Shown: positions 6,091 to 53,233, counted from the first letter of the stretch. The stretch is DNA of 64,000 nucleotides from a bacterium (GCA_004558975.1 SFZB01000002.1:2836-66835); one strand, 5' to 3'. Numbers and translations: made by a program. Notes: generated by a model from the letters alone, not told the origin.

Positions 6091-7613
6091 ATGAATCTTC
6101 GTCCGGAAGAAATCAGTAAGATTATCAAAGAACAGATTCGCTCCTACCGCGCCGAGACCGATCAGGCGGAGGTGGGCACCGTCGTCCTCGTCGGCGACGG
6201 CATCGCGCGCGTTTTCGGTCTCGACAACTGTATGGCGAACGAGCTTGTCGCCTTTGACGGCGGTGCGCTCGGCATGGCGCTCAACCTCGAGGAGAGCGCC
6301 GTCTCCGTCGTCCTGCTCTCCGGGGGGGATACCCTGAAGGAAGGCACCGTCGCGCGCCGCACCGGTAAGGTCGTCAGCGTCCCCGTCGGGGAGAAACTGC
6401 TCGGGCGCGTCGTGGACGCGCTGGGACAGCCCATTGACGGGCGGGGTCCCATCGACTATGAGACGACGCGCCCCATCGAGAGCGACGCGCCGGGCATCAT
6501 CAAGCGCAAGAGCGTCAGCGTACCGCTCCAGACAGGCATCAAGGCAATCGACTCCATGGTGCCGATCGGGCGCGGTCAGCGTGAGCTCATCATCGGCGAC
6601 CGCGGCACCGGTAAGACGACCGTCGCCGTCGATACCATCCTCAATCAGCGCGACACCGGCGTGCTCTGCGTCTATGTCGCGATCGGACAGAAGGAATCGA
6701 CCGTCGCGGGGCTCGTCGAGACGCTGACGGCGGGGGGCGCCATGGCGTACACGACCGTCGTCTCCGCCTCCGCCTCCGACCCCGCCGCGCTCCAGTACAT
6801 CGCGCCCTATGCGGGGTGTGCCATGGCGGAGCATCTGATGGCGAAGGGGCGCGACGTGCTGATCGTCTATGACGATCTGTCCAAGCACGCGGTCGCGTAC
6901 CGCGCACTCTCCTTGCTCATTCGCCGTCCGCCGGGACGTGAGGCATACCCCGGCGACGTCTTCTACCTGCATTCCCGTCTCCTCGAGCGCGCGGCGCGCG
7001 TCGGTGAGAAATGGGGCGGCGGGAGCCTGACCGCCCTGCCGATCATCGAGACGCAGGCGGGCGACGTCTCGGCGTATATCCCGACCAACGTCATTTCCAT
7101 CACGGACGGGCAGATCTTCCTCGAGACCGAACTCTTCCACTCGGGCGTCATGCCGGCGGTCAACCCCGGTATCTCCGTCTCCCGTGTCGGCGGCAGTGCG
7201 CAGATCAAGGCGATGAAAAAGGTCGCCGGGTCGCTCAAGCTCCTGTATTCCCAGTACCGCGAACTCGAGGCGTTCGCCCAGTTCGGCTCCGACCTCGACG
7301 CGGACACCAAGCGGCGTCTCGCACAGGGCGCGCGCATCGTCGAAGTGCTGAAACAGGATAAATCCTCGCCCGTGCCGGTGGAATATCAGGTGGCGATCCT
7401 CTTCGCCGCCGTGCATGAGTTGCTCGGCGATATTCCGCTCGATATGCTCCGTTCCTACGAAAAGGGGCTGTACCTCTATCTCGACGTGCACGCGACCGAC
7501 GTCCTGTACCGCATCCGCACGACGGGGGCGCTCTCCGACGAGGATGCCGAGGGACTCCGTGCGGCGATCGAAGCGTATAACGTCGCCTTCCTCAGCGGGG
7601 AGATGGAAACGGT

Positions 7614-15087: not shown

Positions 15088-15139
15088 TAGGCAAACGCCG
15101 TCAGTCGGCGGTCAAACGGTAGGCAAACGCCGTCAGTCG
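15088..15139. repeat. Perfect 20-bp direct repeat (period 32 bp) spanning the patB stop codon
   Basis: taggcaaacgccgtcagtcg at 15088-15107 and 15120-15139. The second copy contains the patB stop (tca at 15133-15135). Confidence 0.85.
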
Positions 15140-16308
15140 CCGCTGTCTCTGAAAGAGGCGAGCCCGCGGGTGAGCCGACGGAGCCCCTCTTCGACCGTCG
15201 CGCGTGGGGCGGCGACGTTCATGCGGAGGAAGGCGCGGCCGCTCTCGCCGTATTCGCTCCCCGCCGTGAGGTAGAGCCCTGCCGCCCGCCGCAGATGATC
15301 GGCGAGGCGATCGGCATCGGGGACGATGCGGGAGACGTCGAGCCACAGCAGGTAGGTCGCGTCACTCGGGGTGACGCGGAGGTCGGGGCACTCGCGCGCG
15401 AGCGTCTCGCGCACAAGGCACTTGTTCTCATACAGGTAGGTGCGGAGGGCATCGAGCCACAGCGCCCCTTTGGTAAACGCCGCGACGGCGGCGGTGACGG
15501 CGAAAGCGTTCGGCTCCGCGACCTCATCGGTGTTGAGCCCGCGCGAGACGCGGTGACGAAGCGTCGGGTCGGGGGTGACGGTGCAGGCGGTCTGTAGCCC
15601 CGCGAGGTTGAATGCCTTGGTGGGGGCGATGAGCGTCACGCTGTTCTCCCGGCAGTCGTCCGAGACGGAGGCGAAAGGCGTATAGGCACAGCCGGGGTCG
15701 GTGAGATCACAATGGATCTCGTCCGAGACAACGAGGACATGATGCTTTTTCGCGAGGGCACCGATCCTCGCGAGGGTCTCGCGACTCCAGATTTTGCCCA
15801 CCGGGTTGTGCGGGTTGCAGAGGATCAGCATGGAAGTTTCGGGGTCGGCGAGTTTGCGTTCCAGATCCGCAAAGTCGATGTCATAGACACCCCCCTCATA
15901 GCGGAGGGGTGATTCAAGGACGTGTCTGCCGTTATTGACAATCGAATTGAAAAAGATGTTATAGACCGGGGTCATGATGAGGACGTTCTCCCCGACGGTC
16001 GTGAGCTTCCGTACAATCGAGGAGAGGGCAGGGACGACGCCGGTCGTAAAGGTCAGCCACGCGGGGTCGAACGTGACGCCGTGGCGCTCCCGCCACCAGT
16101 CGCAGTAGGCGCTGTACCACTCATCCGGCACGACGGAGTAGCCGAACACGCCGTGTGCGAGCCGCTCGGCGAGCGCGTCTCTGACCGCCGGGGCAGTCTT
16201 GAAATCCATGTCCGCGACCCACATGGGGAGTTCTCCCGCGGGGACGTCCCACTTGAGCGAGCCGCTCCCGCGGCGGTCGACGGGGGTATCGAAATCGAAA
16301 GCGGTCAT
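15133..16308 (-). CDS. patB: MalY/PatB-family PLP-dependent C-S lyase (cystathionine beta-lyase-like aminotransferase class I/II)
   Basis: N-terminal FDFDTPVDRRGSGSLKWD and ...LIAPTKAFNLAGLQ (PLP lysine context). Confidence 0.87.
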   Translation of the reverse strand: MTAFDFDTPVDRRGSGSLKWDVPAGELPMWVADMDFKTAPAVRDALAERLAHGVFGYSVVPDEWYSAYCDWWRERHGVTFDPAWLTFTTGVVPALSSIVRKLTTVGENVLIMTPVYNIFFNSIVNNGRHVLESPLRYEGGVYDIDFADLERKLADPETSMLILCNPHNPVGKIWSRETLARIGALAKKHHVLVVSDEIHCDLTDPGCAYTPFASVSDDCRENSVTLIAPTKAFNLAGLQTACTVTPDPTLRHRVSRGLNTDEVAEPNAFAVTAAVAAFTKGALWLDALRTYLYENKCLVRETLARECPDLRVTPSDATYLLWLDVSRIVPDADRLADHLRRAAGLYLTAGSEYGESGRAFLRMNVAAPRATVEEGLRRLTRGLASFRDSGD

Positions 16309-16309
16309 G

Positions 16310-17155
16310 TCAGGCGTCCTCCCGGACGATCACGGTGGTTTTGGTGGGGTCGACGCGGTCGCGGTCAATCGTGAGCTGTCCGATATGATCGGCACGAATG
16401 GTGCCGCCCGCGGGGTTGAGGACGCTGTCCACGGCGCCCGTGATATCGGCGTCGACGGTCGAATACTCGAACGCGAGGGTGGTATTGATGAGTTTACAGT
16501 TCTGCAGCGTCAGGTGGTCGATATAGCAGAAGCCTTGCAGGCTCTCGACCGTGCAGTTGACGAGCGTCAGATGCTTCGCGTTCCACCCGAGGTACTCCCC
16601 GGTGATATAGGAGTCGTACACCGTGACGTTTTCGCTGTTCCAGAACGCGTCCTTGGTGAAGAGTTTTGAGGAGCGGAGGGTCACGTTCTTCGCGCCGTCA
16701 AAGGCGTAGTTGCCGTTCAGGAGCAGGTGGTCGGCGGTGACGTCCTCGGCGTTCATCAGGAGGTAATCCCCTTTGGCGCTGACGTTTTGCAGGGTGATGT
16801 CGCGGCACGCCCACAGCGTCTCGGCGGCATTCGTCATCGTGACGTTCGTGAGGTTGATGCCCCTCGCGCGGCGGAAGGTCTTGGGCGCCTCAATCACCGT
16901 GTCGGTAAGAGAGATGCTTTCGGTGTACCAAATGCCCGCGCGGGCGGCGTCGGTGAGGACGCAGTCGCGGAGCGAGATGTCGCGTCCGTACCAGAGCGGA
17001 TACTTCCAGCGGAAGGAACAGCCCCGGAGCGTGAGCCCGGCGCTCTCTTTGAGCGGCGACTCGCCGTCCTCGAAGATACAGTCGGTCAGGGTCAGGTCAC
17101 GCGCGCCGAAGAGCGCCCGCTCCCCCGTAAAAATCTTTCTTTCAAACGTTTCCAT
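16310..17155 (-). CDS. DUF3737-family protein (predicted right-handed beta-helix)
   Basis: ERKIFTGERALFGARDLTLTDCIFEDGESPLKE and repetitive L.L.NC/ V.. turns. Ends 1 nt from the patB start. Confidence 0.7.
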   Translation of the reverse strand: METFERKIFTGERALFGARDLTLTDCIFEDGESPLKESAGLTLRGCSFRWKYPLWYGRDISLRDCVLTDAARAGIWYTESISLTDTVIEAPKTFRRARGINLTNVTMTNAAETLWACRDITLQNVSAKGDYLLMNAEDVTADHLLLNGNYAFDGAKNVTLRSSKLFTKDAFWNSENVTVYDSYITGEYLGWNAKHLTLVNCTVESLQGFCYIDHLTLQNCKLINTTLAFEYSTVDADITGAVDSVLNPAGGTIRADHIGQLTIDRDRVDPTKTTVIVREDA

Positions 17156-17353: not shown

Positions 17354-17393
17354 AAAAAAACGGCGTTGCGCCCGGTTTTTCGGGCACAACGCC
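17354..17393 (-). terminator. Rho-independent terminator of the hydrogenase operon
   Basis: 13-bp stem with one mismatch (ggcgttgcgcccg/cgggcacaacgcc). On the minus strand it is followed by TTTTTTT. Confidence 0.7.
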
Positions 17394-17416
17394 GCTCTGA
17401 CGGACGAGAGAGCAAT

Positions 17417-17463: not shown

Positions 17464-18888
17464 TTATTTCAACTGGGAAACAGCGTCCGCGATGGTCTTT
17501 TCGAGTGCTTCTTTGCCGTAGCGGTCGACATCGTCGCGACTGCGGGGCTCATGCGTGAGGCACCCGGCGCCGCCGATACAGCCGCCGACGCACGCCATGC
17601 CTTCGATGAAGTTGGCGTCGAGGAGGTTCTTCGACTTCTTGAGCAGCGCCACGCGGCAGGCTTCGATCCCGTCGCAGGCACAGGCCTTCAGGGCAAAATC
17701 GGTGAACCCCTGTTCCTTGAGCCCCTCCGCCACGGCGTCGGAAAGACCGCCGCATCGGGCGAAGATACGCCCGAAGTAGGAGGCGTTGTCAAGAACCCCT
17801 TCGGGGAGCGTGGTGATGTCGAGGTCGCGGCTGTCAAAGAGCGCCTGCAGTTCCTCAAACGTCATCGCGACGTCGACATAGGGCTTTACGTCCTCTTTCT
17901 GCACTTCGGCTTTCTTCGCCGTGCAGGGACCGATGAACACGACCTTTGCGCCGGGGGTAGTCTCCTTGATGTACTTGGAGATCATCGCCATCGGCGAGAG
18001 GTTATGCGAGACGAACGGCGCGAGGTCGGGGAAGTTCTTGTGAATGTAATCGACGAACGCCGGACAGCAGGAACTGGTGAGGAAGCCTTTTTCCGCGAGT
18101 TCACGCGATTCCGCCTGCGCCACCATGTCGGCGCCGAGCGCCGCCTCGATGACGGTGTGGAACCCGAGTTCCTTCAGTCCGGTGATGACCTGCCCGAGTT
18201 TCGCATAGGTAAACTGGCTGGAGATCGACGGGGCGACGACGGCGTAGGTCTTATACTTTTGGTTGCCCTCGCTCTTTTTCAGAATGTCGATGACATTCAG
18301 AATAAAGGATTTGTCCGTAATGGCGCCGAACGGGCACTGATAGACGCAGGCACCGCAGGCGATGCACTTCGAGCCGTCGATCGTCGCGGCTTTCTCCTCG
18401 TTCATGGAGATCGCCTTGACCTTGCAGGCGTTCTGGCACGGGCGCTTGCGCCCGACAATCGCCGTGAAGGGGCAGACCTTCGAGCACGCGCCGCACTCCT
18501 TGCACTTCGACTTGTCGATGTGCGCGACGTGGTTCTGGTCAAAGGAAATAGCGCCGAAGCGGCAGACGTCCTCACAGCGGTGGGCGAGGCAACCGCGGCA
18601 GGCGTTCGTGACCTCGTAGCCGCCGACGGGGCACTCGTCGCACGCGATCTCGATGACCTCGATCACGTTCGGGTTGCTCTTGTCACCGCCCATGGCAATC
18701 TTGACACGCTCCGCGAGGATGGCGCGCTCCTTGTAGACGCAGCAACGCATGGTCGGCACTTTCCCGGGGACGATCGTCATCGGGATATCGACCGCACTCT
18801 CGGGCAGGCGATCTGCCCATGCCTCGCGCGCGACTTCACGCAGGACTTTGTATTTCAGGTGCTGGACCTTGGTATCAAATTTTTTCAT
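17464..18888 (-). CDS. [FeFe] hydrogenase, multi-ferredoxin-domain type (group B-like)
   Basis: Canonical H-cluster motifs TSSCCPAF, GPCTAKKAE and GMACVGGCIGGAGC. Several CxxCxxCxxxCP clusters. N-terminal ...TMRCCVYKERAILAERVKIAMGG. Confidence 0.85.
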   Translation of the reverse strand: MKKFDTKVQHLKYKVLREVAREAWADRLPESAVDIPMTIVPGKVPTMRCCVYKERAILAERVKIAMGGDKSNPNVIEVIEIACDECPVGGYEVTNACRGCLAHRCEDVCRFGAISFDQNHVAHIDKSKCKECGACSKVCPFTAIVGRKRPCQNACKVKAISMNEEKAATIDGSKCIACGACVYQCPFGAITDKSFILNVIDILKKSEGNQKYKTYAVVAPSISSQFTYAKLGQVITGLKELGFHTVIEAALGADMVAQAESRELAEKGFLTSSCCPAFVDYIHKNFPDLAPFVSHNLSPMAMISKYIKETTPGAKVVFIGPCTAKKAEVQKEDVKPYVDVAMTFEELQALFDSRDLDITTLPEGVLDNASYFGRIFARCGGLSDAVAEGLKEQGFTDFALKACACDGIEACRVALLKKSKNLLDANFIEGMACVGGCIGGAGCLTHEPRSRDDVDRYGKEALEKTIADAVSQLK

Positions 18889-18903
18889 CTTGGGTGTCCT
18901 CGA

Positions 18904-20076
18904 TCAGAAATAACTGACTTTGATCCGCTTGCCCATTTTGACAAGGCACTCGGACAGTTCTTTGACCAGATTCATTTTGATATTGAAGTTAATCGGCAGG
19001 TCGGGGTTCTGGTGCGCCGGGTTGACGGCTCTGCCGACGAAGAAGTTGATGTCCGTCGCCTCTTCGAACAACATCCGCGCAATCAGTGACGCGCCGTCAT
19101 GGCGGAAACTCCACTGCTCGTAACTCTTGTTATCACGCAGGTAGTCTTTCGCGTACTCCACGACGCGGTTGACCGTGATGACGCCCTCGGTCACGAGGTC
19201 GACGCCCTCGATCTCCGCGATCGGCGGAATGTCGCTCTGCTCGAACGTGAGCCCCACGCGCACGGGCTTCCCGAGGTATTTGGCGGCGATGGACGACGTG
19301 GTGCCGCCGCAGACGATGTGCTTGCCCTCCTTCGAGAAGAAGAGCGCCATCATGCGGTTGCAGTCGTCGCGGTTGGAGGGGGGACCGAACAGCAGATTCA
19401 TCGGTACGCGCCGACGAATCTTGACGACACAGGCGGTGGCGTCATCACCCGGCTTACCGCCGTAGAGGCGATTGCACTCGTCAATCAGCATGGTGGAGAG
19501 GGTCTTGGCGGTATAACCGCCCGCGGCGCTCGCCTCCATGAAGCCGATGATGTCTTCGCGTTTCCAGCCGAAGTTGTAGGTCAACCCGAGCCCGGCATGA
19601 GGGCAGCCGTCACTCATCAGAATGAACGTATCCTCTTCCTCAAGCCGAATGACGGACTTGAAAATCTTCTTGCCGCCGATAGACATTTCGGTCTTCGGGT
19701 AATCGTAGTTCTTACCCTCGCGGAGCAGAATCACCAGCGGGTTATCGAACTGAATAATCTCTGCTTCGGTGTTGTTCACGAGGTGCAGAATGGTAAAGGT
19801 CGAATAGGCGACTCCGCGCACCGAACAGACCGGCAGGGTGGCGGCGATCGTCTCGACGCAGTCCTCGAGCGTCAGCCCCTCCGCCATCATGGTGGAGATA
19901 ATCTTGGAAGTCAGGGTAGAGAGAATACTCGCCTTGACCCCCGAGCCGAGCCCGTCCGCGAGGACGACGACGGTCGAGTCCTCGCTCTGCTCCACGACGT
20001 CCACATGGTCGCCGCAGAGCTGCTCGCCGACGTGGTTCACACTTTTGTAGCCGATATCGGCACAGAGTTCATTCAT
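18904..20076 (-). CDS. SpoIIE/PP2C-family serine phosphatase with an uncharacterised C-terminal domain of about 190 aa
   Basis: GEQLCGDHVDVVE...VVVLADGLGSGVKASILS is the PP2C/SpoIIE metal-binding context. The start overlaps the hydS stop by 8 nt. Confidence 0.85.
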   Translation of the reverse strand: MNELCADIGYKSVNHVGEQLCGDHVDVVEQSEDSTVVVLADGLGSGVKASILSTLTSKIISTMMAEGLTLEDCVETIAATLPVCSVRGVAYSTFTILHLVNNTEAEIIQFDNPLVILLREGKNYDYPKTEMSIGGKKIFKSVIRLEEEDTFILMSDGCPHAGLGLTYNFGWKREDIIGFMEASAAGGYTAKTLSTMLIDECNRLYGGKPGDDATACVVKIRRRVPMNLLFGPPSNRDDCNRMMALFFSKEGKHIVCGGTTSSIAAKYLGKPVRVGLTFEQSDIPPIAEIEGVDLVTEGVITVNRVVEYAKDYLRDNKSYEQWSFRHDGASLIARMLFEEATDINFFVGRAVNPAHQNPDLPINFNIKMNLVKELSECLVKMGKRIKVSYF

Positions 20077-21745
20077 CGGCGATGGATTCCTTCAGTTTTG
20101 TCAGGGCGATCTTGGTCTCTGCCGCGGTCTCACCGAGCAGAGAGGCGATCTCCTGCACGATCCGCATCTGCTTATCGACGACCTTATCGGCGATATCGAC
20201 CGTCTGCTCGCGAATCGTTTCTTTCTTCTTGCGCTCGTCCTCCTCGCTCGTCACATCACGCATGATGCAGATGAGCAGGTGGTAGTCGCGGTCATAGATG
20301 ACCGTCTCCTCGACGAACTTGCCGTATTCGGCAAGATAGACGCGGCGGTCACGCACCTCTTCCTTGGATTCCAGCACTTCGAGGAATACCTTGGGGTCGA
20401 GGATACGGACGACCAGGTCGCCGAGAATATCGGACGCCGAGCGTATGTTCATGATCTTGCGCGCCGCCGTGTTGATCTGTTGCACCTCGAGTTTCTCGTT
20501 GAGGACAATCAGCCCGTTCGGCGTATTGTTGACGATACTGTCGGAGAAGCTCTCGGCTTTCTCCTTGAGGTAGGGCAGACACATGGAGACTTCCGCCTTG
20601 CCCTGATAAATGGCAATCGCCTTTTCCCGGCAGGTGTTGTACCCGCAGGAGCCGCAGTTGAGTTCATCCTCCTGTCGGGTCTTGCCCATCTGGCGGAGAA
20701 TTTCGGCAATCTCGTAATCGGACGGCATCTGCGCGCGGCGCTCGATCGGGGCGAACTGCTTCTGCATCTCGGTGAAATCCGGCTGTGCGACAGGGAAGTC
20801 TTTTTCACCCGCCGCCTCCGTGATTGCAAGATAATCCTTGACGGGGGAGCGGTGGTATTTCTCCATGACAGGACCGCCGATGCAACTGCCGGCGCAGGCG
20901 GACATTTCGATGAAGCAGTGATGAATCTTACCGCTCTCGATGTCGCGGAGTGCGGCAATACAGTTATCGACCCCGTCAATCGCGAGGTAGGTGTAGCCCG
21001 GGGCGGTCTTGGTCATGCTCTTGAGCACGCCACCCGTCGTCGGGAAGAAGCGCGCCCGGCTCTCGGGGCTCGTATCCGTCTCTTTTTCGAGCGGAATCCC
21101 TGCGGCGGCGAGCCACTCCGTCAGCTCCTCAAACGTCAGCACCGCGTCGACAATCCCCTCGTAATACTCTGCTTCGTCTTTCTTGGCGACGCAGGGACCG
21201 ATGAACACCGTCTTGGCATTCGGGTGACGGCGCTTGATGTCTGTGCAGTGTGCCTGCATCGGGGACAGCACTTTCGCGAGGTACTGCAGTTCCGTCGGGA
21301 AATACTTCTGGATCAGGAGATTGACCGAATGACAGCAGGAGGTGATAATGATATCATGCTCCTCTTCCGCGAGCATCCGCTCATACTCTCGCTTGACCAT
21401 CGTGGCGCCGACGGCGGTCTCCTCCGCGTCGGTAAAGCCAAGCTTCTGCAGGGCACGGCGCATCGCACCGATGCCCACGCCGTCGTAGTTGGCGACGAAG
21501 GAGGGCGCGAGACTCACATAAACGGGGTCGCCGGAGGCAAGGAGCACCTTGACCTTTTCGACCTCGCTTGTGATTTCTTTGGCATTCTGCGGGCAGACGA
21601 CGAAGCACTGACCGCAGAGGATGCACTCGTTCCCGATAATATGTGCCTGATTGCCCGAGAAGCGGATCGACTTCACCGGACAATGACGGATACATTTATA
21701 ACAGTTCTTACAGTTGGATTTTTTCAGCGTCAGACAGGTAGACAC
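20069..21745 (-). CDS. hydS: Putative sensory [FeFe] hydrogenase (HydS-like) with a C-terminal PAS domain
   Basis: Two CxxCxxCxxxCP motifs. H-domain with TSCCHS, GPCVAKKDE and EMSACAGSCIGGP. Then CGSCGYNTC-x16-C, a PAS-like segment (NTPNGLIVLNEKLEVQQINTAARKIM) and a coiled coil. GTG start at 21745 with SD agaggag. Confidence 0.82.
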   Translation of the reverse strand: MSTCLTLKKSNCKNCYKCIRHCPVKSIRFSGNQAHIIGNECILCGQCFVVCPQNAKEITSEVEKVKVLLASGDPVYVSLAPSFVANYDGVGIGAMRRALQKLGFTDAEETAVGATMVKREYERMLAEEEHDIIITSCCHSVNLLIQKYFPTELQYLAKVLSPMQAHCTDIKRRHPNAKTVFIGPCVAKKDEAEYYEGIVDAVLTFEELTEWLAAAGIPLEKETDTSPESRARFFPTTGGVLKSMTKTAPGYTYLAIDGVDNCIAALRDIESGKIHHCFIEMSACAGSCIGGPVMEKYHRSPVKDYLAITEAAGEKDFPVAQPDFTEMQKQFAPIERRAQMPSDYEIAEILRQMGKTRQEDELNCGSCGYNTCREKAIAIYQGKAEVSMCLPYLKEKAESFSDSIVNNTPNGLIVLNEKLEVQQINTAARKIMNIRSASDILGDLVVRILDPKVFLEVLESKEEVRDRRVYLAEYGKFVEETVIYDRDYHLLICIMRDVTSEEDERKKKETIREQTVDIADKVVDKQMRIVQEIASLLGETAAETKIALTKLKESIADE

Positions 21746-21749
21746 GGGT

Positions 21750-22013
21750 CTAACTCCTCTCCTTTTCGACTGCCGGCAGAATGGTATCACGGAAGAAGTC
21801 GCCGAAGGTCTCGGGGGTGATGCCGGTATAGATCACGTCATTGACCGTAATCGTGACCCCGATCCGATTGCACTTCCCGGCGCAGAAACTGCCGGAGAGG
21901 ACGATCTCGTCCTCGAGGTGGTTTTTCTGGACTGCCGCTTCCAGAAGGGAAACGATCTCGGGGGCACCTTTGAGGTGGCAGGAGCTCCCGACGCAGACTT
22001 GTATGAACACCAT
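21750..22013 (-). CDS. Thioredoxin-like [2Fe-2S] ferredoxin-domain protein
   Basis: VCVGSSCHLKGA...FCAGKCN four-Cys pattern (Cx4C...Cx3C), 87 aa. Confidence 0.8.
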   Translation of the reverse strand: MVFIQVCVGSSCHLKGAPEIVSLLEAAVQKNHLEDEIVLSGSFCAGKCNRIGVTITVNDVIYTGITPETFGDFFRDTILPAVEKERS

Positions 22014-22019
22014 GGCGCT

Positions 22020-22259
22020 TTACGCTTTCGCGAGGATTTCTTTCACAAAGAAGTCCCTCACGGTCTCGGGGGAGACGGAGAAGAACGCGTCGTCCACGGT
22101 CACGCAGACACCCTCCTGGCATCTGCCCATGCAGAACGTGCCGCCGAGCTCGACCTTGTCCTTGAGTCCGTTCTCCGAGATGAGATACTGGAGGGTCTCA
22201 ACGACCTGACGTGCGCCTTTGAGGTGGCAGGAACTGCCGATACAAACCGTAACTTTCAT
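22020..22259 (-). CDS. Thioredoxin-like [2Fe-2S] ferredoxin-domain protein (tandem paralog)
   Basis: VCIGSSCHLKGA...FCMGRCQ, 79 aa. SD aaagga. Confidence 0.8.
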   Translation of the reverse strand: MKVTVCIGSSCHLKGARQVVETLQYLISENGLKDKVELGGTFCMGRCQEGVCVTVDDAFFSVSPETVRDFFVKEILAKA

Positions 22260-22284: not shown

Positions 22285-22317
22285 CATAAAAATGCGCCGG
22301 GCGTTGCCGCCCGGCGC
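22285..22317 (-). terminator. Intrinsic terminator/attenuator between the kinase gene and the [2Fe-2S]-hydS operon
   Basis: gcgccgggcg / cgcccggcgc 10-bp stem with a 4-nt loop. On the minus strand it is followed by aTTTTTa, only about 25 nt before the next ATG. Confidence 0.6.
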
Positions 22318-22330
22318 GGCAGACAGGCTG

Positions 22331-23080
22331 TTAGTCGTAGTCGACGACGTTCACCCAGGAGAGCAGGAACTGGCGCTCTTTCTCGTTGCCCTTCACAGAC
22401 TGGGAAGCGGCGACGATCGGCATCCATTTCTGCACGTACTGCTTCGCGGTATCGCTCTTCTTGCAGAAGAGATCCAGATAGGCGTTCGCCCCCTCGATGT
22501 CTCCGGCGAGCCAGAAGAGCAGGTAAGTGCGGGCGACGTCCGCAGAGGCGTTGCCCTGCGTGACGTGCGACCAGTCGAGAATGTACGGCGTGCCGTCCTC
22601 GGCGATGATGATGTTCGAGGGGTTGAAGTCACCATGGCAGACCTTGTTGTGCTTCGGCATACTCTCGAGGCGGGTATGCAGGTCGTAGCGCGTGGTGGCG
22701 TCCAGATCGGCGGCGCTGATCTTGCGGTTCATCTTATCTTTCAGCTTGGTGAGCAGGGGGCAGGTGTGGCTGTGCACATCCATCTGGAGGTCAACGAGCA
22801 GTTCAAGGTACTCATGCTTTTTCTCCGGGTGCTCCTCCATGAGCTGCGCCAGGGTCTTCCCCTTGATGTACTCGGAGACGATTGCCCACTTGCCGTCGAC
22901 GGTGAGAACCTCTTTGATCTTCGGGATCCGAATGCCGGTCTCCTCGATCCGCGCCTGGTTCAGCGCCTCGTTCAGAATATCCGCTTTGGAATAATCGCTG
23001 TCAAACACTTTGATACAGTCGGCACCGTCGCGGTACACGGTCTTGTTGTTTCTGACCGCAATAACTCTGTCCAGTTTCAT
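22331..23080 (-). CDS. APH/choline-kinase-fold protein kinase-like protein (copy 1)
   Basis: Brenner motif CHGDFNPSNIII and ILDWSHV (metal-binding Asp). Start re-picked at ATG 23080 (MKLDRVIAV). Lies 18 nt after the adhE stop. Confidence 0.75.
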   Translation of the reverse strand: MKLDRVIAVRNNKTVYRDGADCIKVFDSDYSKADILNEALNQARIEETGIRIPKIKEVLTVDGKWAIVSEYIKGKTLAQLMEEHPEKKHEYLELLVDLQMDVHSHTCPLLTKLKDKMNRKISAADLDATTRYDLHTRLESMPKHNKVCHGDFNPSNIIIAEDGTPYILDWSHVTQGNASADVARTYLLFWLAGDIEGANAYLDLFCKKSDTAKQYVQKWMPIVAASQSVKGNEKERQFLLSWVNVVDYD

Positions 23081-23098: not shown

Positions 23099-25810
23099 TT
23101 ACTGTTTCTTTTTCGCGGTGTTTTTACGGTAAACACGCTTGAAATCTTCTGCGTCCGGGGTCTCGATGACCTGGGATTCGTCGGGTTTCTTCACTTCGGT
23201 GAAGGTCTTGCCGTAGTAAGCGTCGAGGTACATCTGCTTGATCTCGCTCATCAGCGGGTATCTCGGGTTCGCACCCGTGCACTGGTCGTCGAATGCCTGC
23301 TCGGTCATCGCGTCGAGGCGGGCGAGGAAGTCCGCTTCGTCCGGCACGTAGTCACGGATCGTGGGCTTGATGCCGACGCGCGCCTTGAGGGCGTCGATCG
23401 CGGCGATGAGGTTCTCCAGCTTCTCCTCGTTGTTCTTACCGGTGATGCCGAGGTAGTCGGCGACTTCGGCGTAACGGGCGAGGGTGTGCGGGTAAGCATA
23501 CTGCGAGAAGGTGCCCATCTTGCTCGGGACTTCCGCGGCGTTGAAACGCAGCACTTCGTCGATCATCAGCGCGTTGGCAATGCCGTGCGCGATGTGGTGG
23601 AAGGCGCCGAGCTTGTGTGCCATGGAGTGGCAGACACCGAGGAAGGCGTTCGCGAATGCCATACCTGCCATGGTCGCGGCGTTCGCCATCTTCTCTCTCG
23701 CCTCGATATCGGTCTGACCGTTATCGTAAGCACGGGGCAGGTAGGTGAAGATCGTCTTGAGGGCGCGGAGCGCCAGACCGTCGGTGTAGTCGGTCGCCAT
23801 GAGGGACGCATACGCTTCGAGCGCGTGGGTCACGGCGTCGATACCGGAGGCGGCGGTCAGACCGCGGGGCGCGGACATATGGAAGTCGGTGTCGATGATT
23901 GCCATCTTCGGCAGGAGTTCATAATCGGCGAGCGGGTACTTGACACCCGTCGTCTCATCGGTGATGACGGCGAACGGCGTCACTTCGGAACCGGTACCGG
24001 CAGAGGTCGGGATTGCGATGAAGTATGCCTTTTCGCCCATCTTCGGGAAGGTGTAGACACGCTTTCTGATATCCATGAAGCGCATTGCCATGTCGAGGAA
24101 GTCGACTTCCGGGTGCTCATACATGACCCACATGATCTTGCCGGCGTCCATCGCGGAACCGCCGCCGAGGGCGATGATGACATCGGGGGCGAAGGCGGTC
24201 ATCTGCTTCGCGCCTTCCTTCGCGCAGGCGAGGGTCGGGTCGGGGGCGACGTCGAAGAAGGTCGCGTGCTGGATCCCGAGTTCATCGAGCTTATCGGTAA
24301 TCGGCTTGGTGTAGCCGTTGTGATAGAGGAAGCTGTCGGTGACGATGAATGCCTTCTTCTTGCCCATGACCTGTTTCAGTTCGTTCAGGGCAACGGGCAG
24401 GCAACCCCGTTTCAGATACACCTTCTCGGGTGCGCGGAACCAAAGCATATTCTCTCTCCTCTCGGCGACGGTCTTGATGTTGATGAGGTGTTTGACCCCG
24501 ACGTTCTCGGAGACGCTGTTCCCGCCCCACGAGCCACAGCCCAGCGTGAGCGAGGGCGTGAGTTTGAAGTTGTAGAGGTCGCCGATACCGCCCTGGGAGG
24601 ACGGGGTGTTCACGAGGATACGGCAGGTCTTCATGCGTTCCTGGAATTCCGCGAGTTTCGCCTTTTCGGTCACGGCGTTGAGGTAGATCGAGGAGGTGTG
24701 ACCGTAGCCGCCGTCCGCAATCAGGCGCTCTGCCTTGGAGAAGGCGTCCTCAATGTCCTTCGCACGGTACATGGCAAGGACAGGGGAGAGTTTCTCGTGC
24801 GCGAACTCTTCGGAGAGTTCAACGCTCTCGACTTCGCCGATGAGGATCTTCGTCCCTTCGGGGACTTCAATGCCGGCGAGGGCGGCAATCTTCTGCGGGC
24901 GCTGACCGACGATCTTGGCGTTCAGAGCGCCGTTGATGATAATGGTCTTTCTGACCTTCTCGGTCTCTTCGGGGTTCAGGAAGTAGCATCCGCGCGCCGC
25001 GAATTCCGTCTTGACGGCATCATAGACGTCGTTCAGGACGATGACGGACTGCTCGGAGGCGCAGATCATACCGTTATCGAACGTCTTGGAGTGAATGATC
25101 GAGTTGACGGCGAGCGTGATGTCTGCCGTGTCGTCGATGATGGCGGGCGTGTTGCCGGCGCCGACGCCGAGGGCGGGCTTACCGGAGGAATACGCCGCTT
25201 TGACCATGCCGGGGCCGCCGGTCGCGAGAATGATGTCGGCTTCCTTCATAATCAGGTTGGTCATTTCGAGCGAGGGAGAATCAATCCAGCCGATGATGCC
25301 CTCCGGCGCGCCTGCCTTGACAGCCGCTTCCAGAACGACCTTCGCCGCGGCGATCGTCGACTTCTTGGCTCTCGGGTGCGGGCTGATGATGATGCCGTTA
25401 CGGGTCTTGAGGCAGATCAGCGTCTTGAAGATGGCGGTGGACGTCGGGTTGGTCGTCGGAATGACGGCGGCGACAAGACCGATCGGCTCCGCAATCTTGC
25501 GGGTGCCGTAGGCGGTGTCCTCTTCAATCACGCCGCAGGTCTTGGTGTTCTTATAGGCGTTGTAAATGTATTCGGCGGCGTAGTGGTTCTTGATGACCTT
25601 ATCCTCGACGACGCCCATGCCGGTCTCTTCGACCGCGAGTTTGGCGAGGGGGATACGCGCCTGGTTGGCGGCGATGGCGGCGGCGAGGAAAATCGCGTCC
25701 ACCTGCTCCTGGGTGTAGGTGGCAAACTTCCGCTGTGCCTCGCGGACACGGGCGATTGCCGCTTCGAGCGACTCCACACTGTCAACTGTCGGATAGATTT
25801 TTTCTTCCAT
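23099..25810 (-). CDS. adhE: Bifunctional acetaldehyde-CoA/alcohol dehydrogenase
   Basis: About 900 aa with an N-terminal ALDH domain (..MICASEQS..) and a C-terminal iron-ADH domain (GGGSAMDAGK, HSMAHKLG). Start at ATG 25810 with SD gaggag. Confidence 0.97.
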   Translation of the reverse strand: MEEKIYPTVDSVESLEAAIARVREAQRKFATYTQEQVDAIFLAAAIAANQARIPLAKLAVEETGMGVVEDKVIKNHYAAEYIYNAYKNTKTCGVIEEDTAYGTRKIAEPIGLVAAVIPTTNPTSTAIFKTLICLKTRNGIIISPHPRAKKSTIAAAKVVLEAAVKAGAPEGIIGWIDSPSLEMTNLIMKEADIILATGGPGMVKAAYSSGKPALGVGAGNTPAIIDDTADITLAVNSIIHSKTFDNGMICASEQSVIVLNDVYDAVKTEFAARGCYFLNPEETEKVRKTIIINGALNAKIVGQRPQKIAALAGIEVPEGTKILIGEVESVELSEEFAHEKLSPVLAMYRAKDIEDAFSKAERLIADGGYGHTSSIYLNAVTEKAKLAEFQERMKTCRILVNTPSSQGGIGDLYNFKLTPSLTLGCGSWGGNSVSENVGVKHLINIKTVAERRENMLWFRAPEKVYLKRGCLPVALNELKQVMGKKKAFIVTDSFLYHNGYTKPITDKLDELGIQHATFFDVAPDPTLACAKEGAKQMTAFAPDVIIALGGGSAMDAGKIMWVMYEHPEVDFLDMAMRFMDIRKRVYTFPKMGEKAYFIAIPTSAGTGSEVTPFAVITDETTGVKYPLADYELLPKMAIIDTDFHMSAPRGLTAASGIDAVTHALEAYASLMATDYTDGLALRALKTIFTYLPRAYDNGQTDIEAREKMANAATMAGMAFANAFLGVCHSMAHKLGAFHHIAHGIANALMIDEVLRFNAAEVPSKMGTFSQYAYPHTLARYAEVADYLGITGKNNEEKLENLIAAIDALKARVGIKPTIRDYVPDEADFLARLDAMTEQAFDDQCTGANPRYPLMSEIKQMYLDAYYGKTFTEVKKPDESQVIETPDAEDFKRVYRKNTAKKKQ

Positions 25811-25848: not shown

Positions 25849-26463
25849 TTAACCGATTTGATTGAGCTGCCCGGACAGGGCGGCAAGAGACGACGCGAGG
25901 TCCTCGTTACGGACCAGCACGCCCTCCGGCGGACGCAGGCGCCGCCGCGAGAAGTTCCAGACCGCGCGGATCCCGTTCTCCGTCATAAGACGCAGCACGT
26001 CGTCCGCAGACGATTCCGGCACCGTGATGATGCCGATCGCGGGATGCTCTCTTTCACAGAAAGCGGCGAAGTCCGAAAGCGGCAGGACGTTGCCGCCGAT
26101 CTTCGCAGGGTCGGTATCGAACGCCGCACGGATGGTCAACGCGTACTCGGCGAAGCCGCCGTACCCGAGCAATGCCTGCCCGAGCCGACCCGCACCGACG
26201 AGAACCGCCGTGTTTTCCGTGTGAGCGCTGAGGTAAGTAGAGAGGTGTTCGATCAATTCTTCGGTGACGTACCCCACCTTCGGTTTCCCGGCGCCGCTCA
26301 CGATGCCGAGATCCTTCCGTACCTGCACGTCGCCCAGCCCCAGCGCATTCGCGATGACGGTCGCCGAAACCGTCCGCCCGACGCCCGATGCAGGGTCACG
26401 CAGATACCCGAGGTAGAGGGGGATACGTTCCATCACCGGTTTGGTGATGCCCATTCTATTCAT
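25849..26463 (-). CDS. rex: Redox-sensing transcriptional repressor Rex
   Basis: ERIPLYLGYLR...ISATVIANALGL..VQVRKDL (winged helix) followed by VLVGAGRLGQALLGY (Rossmann). Start at ATG 26463 with SD aaggagg. Confidence 0.93.
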   Translation of the reverse strand: MNRMGITKPVMERIPLYLGYLRDPASGVGRTVSATVIANALGLGDVQVRKDLGIVSGAGKPKVGYVTEELIEHLSTYLSAHTENTAVLVGAGRLGQALLGYGGFAEYALTIRAAFDTDPAKIGGNVLPLSDFAAFCEREHPAIGIITVPESSADDVLRLMTENGIRAVWNFSRRRLRPPEGVLVRNEDLASSLAALSGQLNQIG

Positions 26464-26495: not shown

Positions 26496-26524
26496 ATTCT
26501 ATCGGAGACGGGGGGATTTTGGAA
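26496..26524 (-). promoter_or_regulatory. Candidate rex-adhE promoter
   Basis: Minus strand reads TTCCAA, 17 nt, TAGAAT. The -35 is weak. Confidence 0.35.
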
Positions 26525-26536
26525 TAACGATTTTCG

Positions 26537-26562
26537 TATATCGATATATCAATGTCGATATA
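26537..26562. promoter_or_regulatory. AT-rich inverted repeat just upstream of the candidate rex promoter
   Basis: TATATCGA-n10-TCGATATA (perfect 8-bp arms), containing the palindrome ATATCGATAT. Confidence 0.35.
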
Positions 26563-26605: not shown

Positions 26606-27532
26606 TCAGGAGAGATATTTGCGTTTGGAGAGACAGAGCTCCGTGATAAAAAGGTTGTCGAGGGTCGTGAGGCGATAATCCTTCGGATGGATGAGGACGT
26701 CGCGGTAGAGCTTGGTGTTGCAGGGGCAGCGCTTCTGCACGAGGCGGTAGCGCGAGAGCAGCTCGTCGGGGACGGGGGCGACCCACATGAAGGTCTCCGG
26801 GTTGCAGGACAGGAGCTCAAACTGGCTGGCGCGCTCAAAGACGAAGATGCGGCGCTTGACGTTGTCCGGGATCTCCTCTTTCCGCACTTCGGAGAGGGAA
26901 AGAGTCGGGACGAAGGGGTCGGCGTGCGTCAGTTCGATATACGGCGAGAGGTCGTCGAAATCGATCGTCTCGCGCTCCGCGAGCGGGTGGTTCTCGCTCA
27001 TCACGAGGACATAGGAAAATTCGGCGACGAGCTCGCTCTCGAGGCTCTTTTCCTCAAGCAGTTCACGGAAATAGCGGTCGTGATGGGAGGCGTAGCGAAT
27101 AATGCCGAGTTTGTAATCGGCATTCACGATATTGTTGATGGCGCGCAGGGCGTTCGTTTCCTTATAGAAGATATCAACGGGTTCGTTTTGGGGGAGCTTC
27201 TTCGTGAACTCTTCAAACGCGCTCGCGATATAGCTCGAGCGCGGCACCGAGACGGAGAATTTCTTCTTGCGGCTCTCGCCGTGGCGGAAGATGTCCTCGA
27301 CCTCGTCGACCTGTGCGAGGATATTGCGCGCGTATTGCATGAAGCGTTCGCCGTCCGGCGTGAGACGCATCCCCTTGGACGTGCGCTCGAAAAGGACGAT
27401 GCCGAGCGAGAACTCCAGTTCCTTGATGGCGCGGCTGACATTCGGCTGCGCCACATACAGCGCTTCCGCCGCCCGGTTGATGGAGCCGGTGCGCGCGACC
27501 TCGACCGCGTACTTCAGGTATTGCAGATTCAC
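26606..27532 (-). CDS. LysR-family transcriptional regulator
   Basis: NLQYLKYAVEVARTGSINRAAEALYVAQPNVSRAIKELE is an HTH. Start re-picked at GTG 27532 (SD aggggg 7 nt upstream) rather than the ORF-track start. Confidence 0.88.
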   Translation of the reverse strand: MNLQYLKYAVEVARTGSINRAAEALYVAQPNVSRAIKELEFSLGIVLFERTSKGMRLTPDGERFMQYARNILAQVDEVEDIFRHGESRKKKFSVSVPRSSYIASAFEEFTKKLPQNEPVDIFYKETNALRAINNIVNADYKLGIIRYASHHDRYFRELLEEKSLESELVAEFSYVLVMSENHPLAERETIDFDDLSPYIELTHADPFVPTLSLSEVRKEEIPDNVKRRIFVFERASQFELLSCNPETFMWVAPVPDELLSRYRLVQKRCPCNTKLYRDVLIHPKDYRLTTLDNLFITELCLSKRKYLS

Positions 27533-27615
27533 GTGTTGTCCCCCTTTTTCGACTGCTTTCACGTTCCTGATATGATTTTAGCACATTTTTGTCCCGGTTA
27601 CAACGCACAATTTTT

Positions 27616-27648
27616 CCAAGTTTCACGAAAATCGGGAAACCGGCTTGG
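27616..27648. promoter_or_regulatory. Candidate LysR-type binding site in the divergent lysR/kinase intergenic region
   Basis: CCAAGTTTC-acgaaaatcgg-GAAAC-cgg-CTTGG, an interrupted dyad with an 11-nt core spacer (T-N11-A style). Confidence 0.3.
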
Positions 27649-27699
27649 TTGTTTTTTCCCGAGGGGGGCAAAAGTCGGCGGCGACACGCGAAAAAAGCA

Positions 27700-27728
27700 T
27701 TGATTTCGGGCGCCGTATCCTTTATACT
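27700..27728 (+). promoter_or_regulatory. Promoter of the second kinase gene
   Basis: TTGATT, 17 nt, TATACT. Confidence 0.5.
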
Positions 27729-27782
27729 GAAAATGTAAAAAACGCGCCGGACGGCGCGGAACGAATCTTTGGGAGGTACCCG

Positions 27783-28538
27783 ATGGGAAACGAACAGATG
27801 ATTGCAAAACGCCCGAACAAAGTCATCTACCGTGACGGTGACACGACGGTCAAACTCTTTGACCCCACCTATGCCGCGGCGGATGTGCTGAACGAGGCGC
27901 TCAACCTCGCCCGCGTGGGTGACGCCGACACGCCCCTGCATATCCCGCGCCTGAAAGAAGTGACCAAGATTGACGGTCAGTGGGCGATCCTCTATGAGTA
28001 TGTGGAGGGGGAATCGCTCGCGAACCTGATGATGGCACACCCCGAGAAATACGACGAATACCTGAATCTGTTCGTGGATCTGCAGATGCTCGTTCATAAA
28101 CAGTGCGTACCCCTGCTCTCCAAGCTGCGGGATAAGATGCAGGGCAAGATCAGCGCGAGCGGTCTCGACGCGACCCTGCGGTACGAACTGCATACCCGGC
28201 TCGAGGGGATGCCGCGGCACAATAAACTCTGTCACGGGGATTTCAACGCCGCGAACATCATCATCACGGCATCGGGTGATCCCTACATTCTCGACTGGTC
28301 GCACGTCACGCAGGGTAATGCCTCGGCGGACGTCGCGCGCACCTACCTCCTCTACTGCCTGAAAGGGCTGAACGAGGAGGCGGAGCGGTATCTCTCCCTC
28401 TACTGCCGGAAGAGCGATACGGCGCGGCAGTATATCCAGAAGTGGATGCCCATTGTCGCGGCGTCGCAACTGGTCAAGCGCAAGCCCGAGGAGCGCGAGT
28501 TCCTGACTTCCTGGGCGAGCGTGGTGGAATACGAATAA
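27783..28538 (+). CDS. APH/choline-kinase-fold protein kinase-like protein (copy 2, paralog of 22331-23080)
   Basis: CHGDFNAANIII, and blocks shared with copy 1: PYILDWSHVTQGNASADVARTYLL and QKWMPIVAASQ. ATG 27783 with SD gggagg. Confidence 0.75.
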   Translation: MGNEQMIAKRPNKVIYRDGDTTVKLFDPTYAAADVLNEALNLARVGDADTPLHIPRLKEVTKIDGQWAILYEYVEGESLANLMMAHPEKYDEYLNLFVDLQMLVHKQCVPLLSKLRDKMQGKISASGLDATLRYELHTRLEGMPRHNKLCHGDFNAANIIITASGDPYILDWSHVTQGNASADVARTYLLYCLKGLNEEAERYLSLYCRKSDTARQYIQKWMPIVAASQLVKRKPEEREFLTSWASVVEYE

Positions 28539-51789: not shown

Positions 51790-51885
51790 ATTGAATATGG
51801 AACAGGGGTGCCGCAAGGCTGAGACGGATGCAAATCCGAACTCTCGTACCTGATACGGGTCATACCGTCGTAGGAAGTTGCATTT
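51790..51885 (+). promoter_or_regulatory. TPP (THI-box) riboswitch aptamer
   Basis: GGGGTGCc..CTGAGA...ACCTGATacGGGTcATACCGTCGTAGGAA matches the THI-element core. It sits upstream of a thiamine transporter. Boundaries are approximate. Confidence 0.85.
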
Positions 51886-51902
51886 CACTTGATATGAAAT
51901 TG

Positions 51903-51939
51903 ATTGCCCCACGAGGTTCTGTGGGGCAATTTTATTTTT
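51903..51939 (+). terminator. Riboswitch expression-platform terminator
   Basis: attgccccac / gtggggcaat 10-bp stem, then TTTaTTTTT, 12 nt before the thiT ATG. Confidence 0.8.
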
Positions 51940-51950
51940 GGAGGTGTGTC

Positions 51951-52805
51951 ATGGAACACACGAAAACCCGCAAACTGGTCGAGAGCGCCATTATGATTGC
52001 GCTCGCCACCGTCCTCAGTCTTCTGAAACTCGCGGATCTGCCTTACGGCGGGTCGGTCACGCTCGCGTCCATGCTCCCGATTGCGCTCATTGCGTACCGG
52101 AACGGTCTCGGCTGGGGACTGGGCAGCGGTCTTGCCTACGGCGTTTTGCAGCAGCTGCTCGGGCTGAAAACGCTGACGTACGTGACGGGTGCAGGCTCTG
52201 TCATCGCCGTCATTCTCCTCGACTATATCATCGCGTTCACCGTCATGGGGCTCGCCGGGATCTTCCGCCGCACACCGATGCCGCAGGCGGCGTCGCTCAC
52301 CGTCGGCGTGGTCTTTTCCTGCGCCCTCCGCTACATCTGCCACGTCATTTCCGGCGCCACCGTTTGGGCAGGGCTCTCGATCCCGACGACGGCGGTACTC
52401 GCCTATTCGCTGGCGTACAACGCAACCTACATGATCCCCGAAACGATCGTGACCGCGCTTGCCGCGTTCTACATCGCGTCGCTCATCGACTTCCGTGAAG
52501 TGCGGATCCGCCGCATGACCCGTGAGAAGTTCGGCGTCGGCGGGTATCTGCTCCTCGCCGGTTCGCTCCTCATGCTTGCCGGTGCCATCTATGATATCGT
52601 GGCGCTGTTCTCGCATATGCAGGATCCCGACAGCGGTACGTTCAATATCACGCTGATCGGTACGAGCGGCATCTGGCTCCCCGTCGTCATTGTGACCGCC
52701 GCCGTCGTTCTGGTGTTTGCGGTTCTCCTTATCGTCGGTCTGCGTCTGCAGGCGAAGGAGCGGGCGGGTGCCGGCGATGCCGATACCCTTGACAAGCAGG
52801 CATAA
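51951..52805 (+). CDS. thiT: Thiamine transporter ThiT (ECF S-component-like) with a C-terminal two-TM extension of about 100 aa
   Basis: KLVESAIMIALATVLSLLKLADLPYGGSVTLASMLPI... resembles ThiT. Riboswitch context. 284 aa. Confidence 0.82.
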   Translation: MEHTKTRKLVESAIMIALATVLSLLKLADLPYGGSVTLASMLPIALIAYRNGLGWGLGSGLAYGVLQQLLGLKTLTYVTGAGSVIAVILLDYIIAFTVMGLAGIFRRTPMPQAASLTVGVVFSCALRYICHVISGATVWAGLSIPTTAVLAYSLAYNATYMIPETIVTALAAFYIASLIDFREVRIRRMTREKFGVGGYLLLAGSLLMLAGAIYDIVALFSHMQDPDSGTFNITLIGTSGIWLPVVIVTAAVVLVFAVLLIVGLRLQAKERAGAGDADTLDKQA

Positions 52806-53203: not shown

Positions 53204-53233
53204 TTTTGCTTTTTCGCGGCGTCTGCCGCCGTG

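Follow-up and report, generated by a model that had tools for sequence, protein, structure and literature searches.

A chromosomal HydS, PP2C phosphatase and [FeFe] hydrogenase gene cluster from an uncultured gut Oscillospirales bacterium, a probable orthologue of the Ruminococcus albus 7 HydS/HydA2 cluster

Described HydS clusters and their counterpart in the window

Group C 'sensory' [FeFe] hydrogenases occur widely among fermenters of the gut and rumen. They are believed to steer reducing power out of the cell either as H2 or as ethanol, a choice with consequences for methane emission, intestinal gas and biofuel strains. In Ruminococcus albus 7, an eight-gene cluster whose sensory hydrogenase has been placed in group C (PMC6776011) was expressed 111-fold lower when an H2 consumer was grown alongside (PMC6776011, PMC10838669). 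The entire cluster is thus strongly induced by accumulating H2, and its regulation follows H2 levels, not the syntrophic partner (PMC6776011). The literature equates this cluster with hfsABCD of Thermoanaerobacterium (PMC5707799, PMC11837493); as these papers equate them, HfsB of Thermoanaerobacterium saccharolyticum is the PAS-containing hydrogenase (HydS), HfsC the Ser phosphatase and HfsD the hydrogenase HydA2. Deletion of hfsB increased adhE expression 2-3 fold and raised ethanol, only when hfsC and hfsD were intact (PMC5707799), and a role of hfsB linked to adhE expression is also described in PMC11837493. Here we analyse a 64-kb stretch of DNA from an uncultured gut Oscillospirales bacterium (the window, in whose coordinates positions are given unless the locus of a relative is named), which harbours at 17464-22259 a five-gene core encoding two [2Fe-2S] proteins, a HydS-type hydrogenase, a PP2C phosphatase and a group B [FeFe] hydrogenase. 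The C3-X-B arrangement reported for Vallitalea is the same context of phosphatase and fermentative hydrogenase as in the window. The question of the HydS signalling route dates from 2014, and papers of 2024-2026 call the signal-transduction mechanism unknown (PMC11376134, PMC13104023, PMC13277313), as an earlier reading of this DNA made from the sequence alone (the sequence-only reading) had held for the route from HydS to the phosphatase.

The sequence-only reading had described five co-directional, tightly packed genes, and the five open reading frames (ORFs) were found with the coordinates, overlap and spacing that it gave. All of them lie on the minus strand:

fdxA: 22020-22259, minus strand, thioredoxin-like [2Fe-2S] protein of 79 amino acids (aa)
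fdxB: 21750-22013, minus strand, second thioredoxin-like [2Fe-2S] protein, 87 aa
hydS: 20069-21745, minus strand, putative sensory [FeFe] hydrogenase, 558 aa
pp2c: 18904-20076, minus strand, SpoIIE-type PP2C phosphatase with an extra domain, 390 aa
hydB: 17464-18888, minus strand, group B [FeFe] hydrogenase (HydA2/HfsD orthologue), 474 aa

The intergenic gaps are 6 nt (fdxA/fdxB), 4 nt (fdxB/hydS) and 15 nt (pp2c/hydB), and the hydS stop and pp2c start overlap by 8 nt (ATGAATGA). The hydS start codon is GTG, with AAGGAGAGGAG in front of it.

A tblastn search of a plasmid collection located the HydS/HydA2 cluster of R. albus 7 on pRUMAL01, with the same nine genes as in the window, in the same order (lysR-rex-adhE-aph-fdx-fdx-hydS-pp2c-hydB) and with the same 8-nt overlap between HydS and phosphatase genes. 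The five core genes are the 3' part of this cluster. The sequence-only reading had likened the architecture of the sensor candidate to the HydS of R. albus and T. maritima; this likeness was real but drawn too narrowly, since the locus corresponds gene by gene to the R. albus cluster as its orthologue, and probably to hfsABCD as well, and extends upstream to rex and lysR. Protein identity between the window and R. albus is 57% for LysR, 44% for Rex, 76% for AdhE, 77% for APH, 77% for FdxA, 54% for FdxB, 68% for HydS (over the full length, both proteins having 558 aa), 77% for PP2C and 75% for HydB/HydA2. In R. albus the cluster is plasmid-borne, whereas the window (G+C content ~60%) is chromosomal, since it carries the RNase P RNA, F-type ATP synthase genes and uvrAB. 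Compared with Thermoanaerobacterium, where adhE and rex are not beside hfs, both genes are adjacent cluster members in the window. A scan of the larger window ORFs revealed neither hydEFG nor further hydrogenase genes. We consider it probable that the locus is a chromosomal orthologue of the R. albus 7 HydS/HydA2 cluster, corresponding to hfsABCD, in which HydS and PP2C signal H2 as proposed for those systems.

We then place the locus among its relatives. Scanning one genome per species gave at least 596 loci encoding PP2C relatives; the synteny counts that follow refer to the best 80 of these (PP2C identity 77-87%), and each count covers only the loci with enough flank. These best 80 loci belong to uncultured gut Clostridia, Oscillospiraceae or Acutalibacteraceae. 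The hydS gene adjoins pp2c in all 76 loci and hydB lies downstream of pp2c in 68 of 70. Two fdx genes are found upstream in 68 of 74 loci (a single fdx in the other six), while aph lies upstream of fdxA in 51/69, adhE upstream in 32/52 and lysR upstream in 36/50. The order LysR, Rex, AdhE, APH-family protein, fdx, fdx, HydS, PP2C and group B hydrogenase is also present in human gut metagenome contigs with a 95%-identical PP2C. In Monoglobus pectinilyticus only the core fdx-hydS-pp2c-hydB is found, plus a small 4Fe-4S ferredoxin, with the same hydS/pp2c overlap. These locus counts and the Monoglobus arrangement indicate that the invariant unit is fdx-hydS-pp2c-hydB, which can do without rex, adhE, aph and lysR although these often accompany it. 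Among uncultured Oscillospirales of human and animal guts, the complete cluster of the R. albus type occurs commonly.

Two hairpins frame the core:

Strong intrinsic terminator: 17357-17398, minus strand, 3' of hydB, an 18-bp stem followed by a T-run
Terminator- or attenuator-like hairpin: 22294-22317, minus strand, in the aph/fdxA gap, an all-GC 10-bp stem followed by a T-run

The second hairpin is only ~35 nt away from the start codon of fdxA, too close for a separate promoter in between; its role could be attenuation within the cluster or stabilisation of a 3' end. It is kept in close relatives, one of which (L006) has another hairpin at the same place, but R. albus has none and a gap of 17 nt instead. 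This hairpin is the one feature that would speak for the genes being independent, not co-regulated and meaningless in their juxtaposition. The 8-nt overlap and the 4-15-nt gaps, the co-regulation of the orthologous R. albus cluster (PMC6776011) and, above all, a gene order kept in dozens of species from three families effectively refute that explanation, and we give it next to no weight.

The cluster type is known and its orthologue has already been studied, so that this copy adds no new principle. What it adds are comparative details, namely a PP2C C-terminal domain without a Pfam or PDB relative, a HydS with a cysteine (Cys) of the C299 type, a near-invariant HydS helix, an aph product that is not a Hanks-type kinase and is doubtful as a partner, and a palindrome before rex. 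These are concrete hypotheses for R. albus 7, which as a cultured organism is the better experimental system, the window copy from an uncultured organism being no more tractable.

HydS, its [2Fe-2S] neighbours and the group B hydrogenase

The sequence-only reading had given HydS ferredoxin clusters, an H-domain, a four-Cys motif and a PAS domain, with no enzymatic output domain, and profile searches agree with this architecture. Where that reading had placed a coiled coil, the protein has a highly conserved C-terminal segment. The motifs that it quoted (TSCCH, EMSACAGSCIGGP and CGSC-x4-C-x16-C) are present in the protein. At the N-terminus, Fer4 family matches coincide with two C-x2-C-x2-C-x3-CP ferredoxin motifs (2x[4Fe-4S]), and the rest of the protein is divided as follows:

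HydS H-domain: 20870-21526, minus strand, Fe_hyd_lg_C (PF02906, 3e-49)
HydS C-x2-C-x4-C-x16-C cluster: 20573-20662, minus strand, PF04060 FeS (3e-10)
HydS PAS domain: ~20336-20542, minus strand, matched by the Pfam PAS profile and by a solved structure
HydS C-terminal helix segment: 20072-20233 (residues ~505-558), minus strand, near-invariant in orthologues

The PAS score was 21.2 bits in the long HydS ORF, just below the gathering score of 22.6, and 23.1 bits when the C-terminal 229 residues were scanned alone; a PAS domain was present in 11/11 HydS orthologues (best 8.8e-7). In a profile of the C-terminal region the best genuine solved match was the cytoplasmic PAS domain of CitA, and the Cys motif matched the [4Fe-4S] sites of RnfB and CoFeSP. 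The HydS of Thermotoga maritima (TmHydS), the group C enzyme characterised biochemically, shares this M2f layout of N-terminal 2x[4Fe-4S], H-domain, C-terminal [4Fe-4S] and PAS domain (layout per PMC13104023); unlike TmHydS, the HydS of the window is linked to a phosphatase. The last ~50 residues of HydS are near-invariant from the window through R. albus to Monoglobus, far above the rest of the protein (57% identity between Monoglobus and the window across the aligned C-terminal 229 residues), which suggests a protein-protein contact.

All four Cys ligands of the H-cluster are present in HydS, within TSCC (residues 133-136, window 21340-21351), GPC and SAC-x3-C, and they are kept in orthologues. 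HydS scores too low for the NCBIfam models of group A (82 bits, cut-off 406) and B1 (206 bits, cut-off 450). These two proxies, together with the 68% identity to the R. albus HydS, make it a probable member of group C (phosphatase-linked, 'C3'), the group that the sequence-only reading had expected; the PDB holds no structure of a group C enzyme.

At the positions corresponding to C299, M497 and M353 of CpI, TmHydS has Ala, Ser (S267) and Gly (G177) (PMC10055695). The HydS of the window shares the Ser (in EMSAC) and the Gly (in GPC) but differs by retaining the proton-relay Cys at the C299 position (in TSCCH), where TamHydS, like TmHydS, has Ala. Loss of this Cys is a feature of TmHydS and TamHydS that the HydS of the window does not share. 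Both Cys of the motif were retained in the 22 orthologues inspected (TSCCH in 21, TSCCQ in one). According to the literature only 17% of sensory sequences keep Cys at this position, so its loss is not a strict requirement of group C. When HydS was aligned with a group A enzyme, the proton-pathway residues E282 and S319 were kept, while E279 and R286 were replaced. The retained Cys and the proton-pathway differences suggest that HydS may turn over H2 differently from TmHydS and TamHydS.

The hydrogenase encoded at the 3' end of the core passed the NCBIfam model TIGR04105 FeFe_hydrog_B1 (555.7 bits, cut-off 450) and failed the group A model (158 bits, cut-off 406), placing HydB in group B as the sequence-only reading had predicted. 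Its motifs are TSCCP, PC and MAC-x3-C, with the H-cluster ligands intact. The R. albus HydA2 (L085 10187-11620) behaved alike, with 577 bits on the B1 model and 158 on the group A model (cut-off 406); Greening et al. 2019 label this protein group A1 in their text, which disagrees with its B1 score. The two small proteins recognised earlier as [2Fe-2S] proteins both exceeded the PF01257 cut-off of 24.8 (30.7 bits for fdxA, 29.6 bits for fdxB) and both have the C-x4-C...C-x3-C ligands. They are paralogues with ~45% identity. Among solved structures both come closest to the [2Fe-2S] modules within bifurcating HydABC (HydC and the C-terminal domain of HydA); FdxA has its best match, at 1e-8, in the [2Fe-2S] domain at the C-terminus of T. 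maritima HydA.

The main rival to a sensory role is that HydS, FdxA, FdxB and HydB are subunits of one catalytic 'Hfs' hydrogenase, in which HydS would be a second catalytic or electron-input subunit and PP2C would tune activity post-translationally. The complete set of H-cluster ligands together with the C299-type proton-relay Cys in HydS would suit such a complex, as would the resemblance of FdxA to modules within bifurcating HydABC. Deletion of hfsABCD lowers hydrogenase activity, transcript levels account only partly for the changes in alcohol dehydrogenase (ADH) activity (PMC5707799), and a proposal from 2026 has HfsABC forming a functional hydrogenase without HfsD (PMC13277313). However, deletion of hfsB alone raises hydrogenase activity and alters adhE transcription (PMC5707799). 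HydS also lacks the group A proton-pathway residues E279 and R286, has Ser for M497 and Gly for M353 as is typical of the low-activity TmHydS, and has a PAS domain and a conserved C-terminal helix without an obvious catalytic role. We regard such a catalytic complex as unlikely.

The same proteins could serve a sensor of another kind, in which HydS would respond to the intracellular redox state (reduced ferredoxin or NADH) through its iron-sulphur (FeS) chain and the [2Fe-2S] proteins, and the H2 effect would be indirect. The genes of two dedicated electron carriers immediately precede hydS, rex, the gene of an NADH/NAD+ sensor, heads the cluster, and the HydS C-terminal cluster has been described in a review as a putative redox-sensing [4Fe-4S] (PMC10838669). 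In one relative (L044) the operator-like palindrome found before rex (see below) also stands before an operon of redox enzymes. A pure redox sensor would have no need for the complete H-cluster site found in all orthologues inspected, and the regulation in R. albus tracks H2 (PMC6776011); a redox sensor of this kind is in our view quite improbable.

The PP2C phosphatase and its C-terminal domain

The pp2c product was divided into two domains:

pp2c N-terminal SpoIIE/RsbU-type PP2C domain: 19414-20076 (residues 1-221), minus strand, PF07228 (57.9 bits)
pp2c C-terminal alpha/beta domain: 18907-19413 (residues 222-390), minus strand, ~170 aa, AlphaFold2 predicted local distance difference test (pLDDT) 91.9

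The sequence-only reading had noticed a PP2C with an additional C-terminal domain; the domain is present and the phosphatase is of the SpoIIE type, but the size of the domain is ~170 aa (residues 222-390) and not ~190. The Asp/Gly metal-site columns D23, D41, D156 and D211-D212 are invariant among homologues. An AlphaFold model built on 42 diverse homologues reached a pLDDT of 88.8 and a predicted template modelling score (pTM) of 0.88, and in this model the protein begins straight with the catalytic fold, with no N-terminal regulatory domain. Foldseek searches with residues 1-221 retrieved SpoIIE (7e-14), RsbX (2e-10) and also an RsbU-like domain. By its modelled structure, PP2C belongs to the SpoIIE/RsbU/RsbX class, a class regulated in trans.

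The C-terminal domain carries the conserved motifs GPP, CGGTT, IPP, DLVTEG, DGAS and NPAH. No Pfam family matched it at E<=10, and a scan of 42 members gave no shared family. A Foldseek search of the PDB returned nothing below 1e-3 (the top-probability match being a methylglyoxal-synthase-like fold, with a template modelling (TM) score of 0.4-0.5), and a profile search of the PDB gave only a marginal match to a SIS domain (phosphoheptose isomerase, E=0.03). The hints of phospho-ligand-binding folds (methylglyoxal-synthase-like, SIS, NBD_C) are weak and mutually inconsistent. Matches to the domain were obtained in 1072 clusters at 50% identity, where it nearly always has one fixed place in PP2C fusions of ~390 aa. 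Two short matches were considered as stand-alone copies and rejected because they are not intact genes, one (L089) standing after a fragmented pp2c and the other (L090) at a contig end. In L089 an intact hydS is followed by a pp2c frame broken into three ORFs (105, 92 and 162 aa), which is either a pseudogene or an assembly error. Acetoanaerobium noterae (L087 7992-9173) encodes a full-length PP2C homologue including the C-terminal domain (39% identity), adjoining CoA-transferase, DUF445 and threonyl-tRNA synthetase (ThrRS) genes with no hydrogenase gene adjacent, indicating that this type of PP2C is not exclusive to HydS clusters.

Among the Bacillus phosphatases, RsbP has a PAS domain and a coiled coil ahead of its PP2C domain. 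The PP2C domain of the window is structurally near that of SpoIIE, an RsbU-like protein and RsbX, but the equivalent PAS-plus-helix module is on the product of the preceding gene, HydS, and would act in trans. The locus differs further from Bacillus partner-switching in the unique alpha/beta domain fused to the C-terminus of PP2C. A low-sensitivity search of the window found neither a STAS substrate nor an anti-sigma kinase.

Proposed H2 signalling and the upstream genes

According to the H2 signalling that we consider probable, HydS would bind or oxidise H2 at an H-cluster tuned by the Ser and Gly at the M497 and M353 positions, with FdxA and FdxB serving it as dedicated redox partners. Its redox or conformational state would travel through the C-terminal [4Fe-4S]/PAS module to the near-invariant helix, which would contact PP2C, and the 8-nt overlap would allow coupled synthesis of both proteins at 1:1. 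The PAS domain and helix would thereby control PP2C in trans, like a split PAS-coiled-coil-PP2C phosphatase of the RsbP type. At low H2, HydS would keep PP2C inactive, because deletion of hfsB mimics high H2 and its effect needs hfsC. At high H2, or when hydS is deleted, PP2C would dephosphorylate a target phosphoprotein, leading to more AdhE and more of the ferredoxin-dependent group B hydrogenase (through expression or activity) and shifting reducing equivalents from H2 and acetate towards ethanol. The effect on transcription is probably exerted at the conserved palindrome upstream of rex, via the LysR-type regulator and/or Rex.

The logic would be that of HoxBC-HoxJ-HoxA in Cupriavidus necator, where a low-activity hydrogenase senses H2 and controls the phosphorylation-dependent expression of metabolic hydrogenases (PMC5707799). 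The Hox system differs in being [NiFe]-based and made of unrelated proteins, with a histidine kinase and a response regulator instead of PP2C, and it controls H2 uptake, whereas the system of the window and R. albus is a switch between fermentative H2 and ethanol.

Several points weigh against this mechanism. H2-dependent signalling has been shown by experiment for no group C enzyme, a function still called putative in 2026, and H2 evokes no response from the C-terminal cluster of TamHydS, a related enzyme of group D (PMC13104023). The direction of control, with HydS inhibiting PP2C, is inferred only by analogy with Thermoanaerobacterium genetics, and the PP2C substrate is a putative one, so far only postulated. 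To judge from its C299-type Cys, HydS may be more catalytic than TmHydS. The aph/fdxA hairpin may split the cluster into two transcription units in this lineage. The neighbouring kinase gene, aph, encodes a doubtful partner for PP2C (see below). Finally, no STAS-like protein was found among the six-frame window ORFs of at least 70 aa, in a phmmer search of low sensitivity with SpoIIAA and RsbV as queries.

The four genes upstream of the core and the element between lysR and rex are:

lysR: 26606-27562, minus strand, LysR-type transcriptional regulator at the cluster head (PF00126 HTH_1, 9e-22)
Operator-like element: 26524-26561, minus strand, AT-rich and palindromic, in the lysR-rex spacer, with half-sites ATATCGAC..ATATCGATAT..AATCGTTAT
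rex: 25849-26463, minus strand, redox-sensing repressor of 204 aa (PF06971 and PF02629)
adhE: 23099-25810, minus strand, bifunctional acetaldehyde-CoA/alcohol dehydrogenase of 903 aa (NF010378, 1392 bits vs a cut-off of 951)
aph: 22331-23080, minus strand, phosphotransferase of 249 aa with the APH/choline-kinase fold (PF01636 APH, 1.9e-14)

A 204-aa gene occupies the position of rex in the closest relatives (L001-L004), and the gene is annotated as Rex on pRUMAL01. The ATG start codon of adhE has GAGGAG in front of it.

The operator-like element gave four matches where 0.02 were expected, and TATCGATA is unique within the window. Relatives including R. albus have a related palindrome, ATATCGATA-N7-TAYCGATAT, upstream of rex (L085 2618-2642), of which the palindrome of the window is a three-half-site variant. 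L044 has palindromes at 1193-1217 and 6114-6138, and a copy there also precedes an operon encoding an iron-containing alcohol dehydrogenase (Fe-ADH), SDR and NfnAB-like proteins. The canonical Rex boxes TTGTGAA-N4-TTCACAA and TTGTTAA-N4-TTAACAA, searched with up to three mismatches, gave no site near the cluster, so the conserved palindrome is not a canonical Rex box. LysR and Rex are the candidates for binding it.

This palindrome also enters a bolder version of the mechanism, in which the PP2C C-terminal domain, whose Gly-rich CGGTT loop weakly hints at phospho-ligand-binding folds, would be a second, metabolite-sensing input. The HydS-PP2C pair would then integrate H2, through the HydS C-terminal helix, with carbon or energy status, and its targets at ATATCGATA-N7-TAYCGATAT would be the LysR-type regulator or Rex. 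We hold this version to be speculative and rather improbable; if true, it would constitute a complete and previously undescribed route from H2 to transcription in gut and rumen Clostridia.

The catalytic loop HGDxxxxN is intact in the aph product (HGDFNPSN), together with the D of ILDWS; as judged from this loop, the protein is probably an active kinase. Its best solved relative is choline kinase (1.7e-5) and it scored 20.2 bits on the Pkinase model (cut-off 31.7), so it fails Hanks-type membership. On pRUMAL01 its counterpart is annotated as a phosphotransferase. The label 'Ser/Thr kinase' (cited from Zheng et al. 2014) was rejected, since the fold is that of APH/choline kinase and not Hanks-type. 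The aph product as an obligatory cognate kinase of PP2C was likewise rejected as unproven: the gene is absent in 18 of the 69 loci and in Monoglobus, and the fold is that of APH.

A second APH-family phosphotransferase gene, aph2 (27645-28538, plus strand), is divergent from lysR. The tblastn comparison with the aph1 locus of close relatives gave ~61% identity. It is kept in L001-L004, and no such gene is annotated beside the R. albus cluster; the divergent aph2 and the GC hairpin between aph and fdxA set the window apart from R. albus.

On the other side of the cluster, 3' of the hydB terminator, lie a DUF3737 gene (16310-17155) and a gene for a PatB-type C-S lyase (15133-16308), both on the minus strand. 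This pair is kept in the closest relatives (L001-L004) and is outside the R. albus cluster. Elsewhere in the window, a thiamine pyrophosphate (TPP) riboswitch (51794-51893) is followed by a gene for a YuaJ-type thiamine transporter (51828-52805) and by the bacterial RNase P RNA (class A, 52826-53204).

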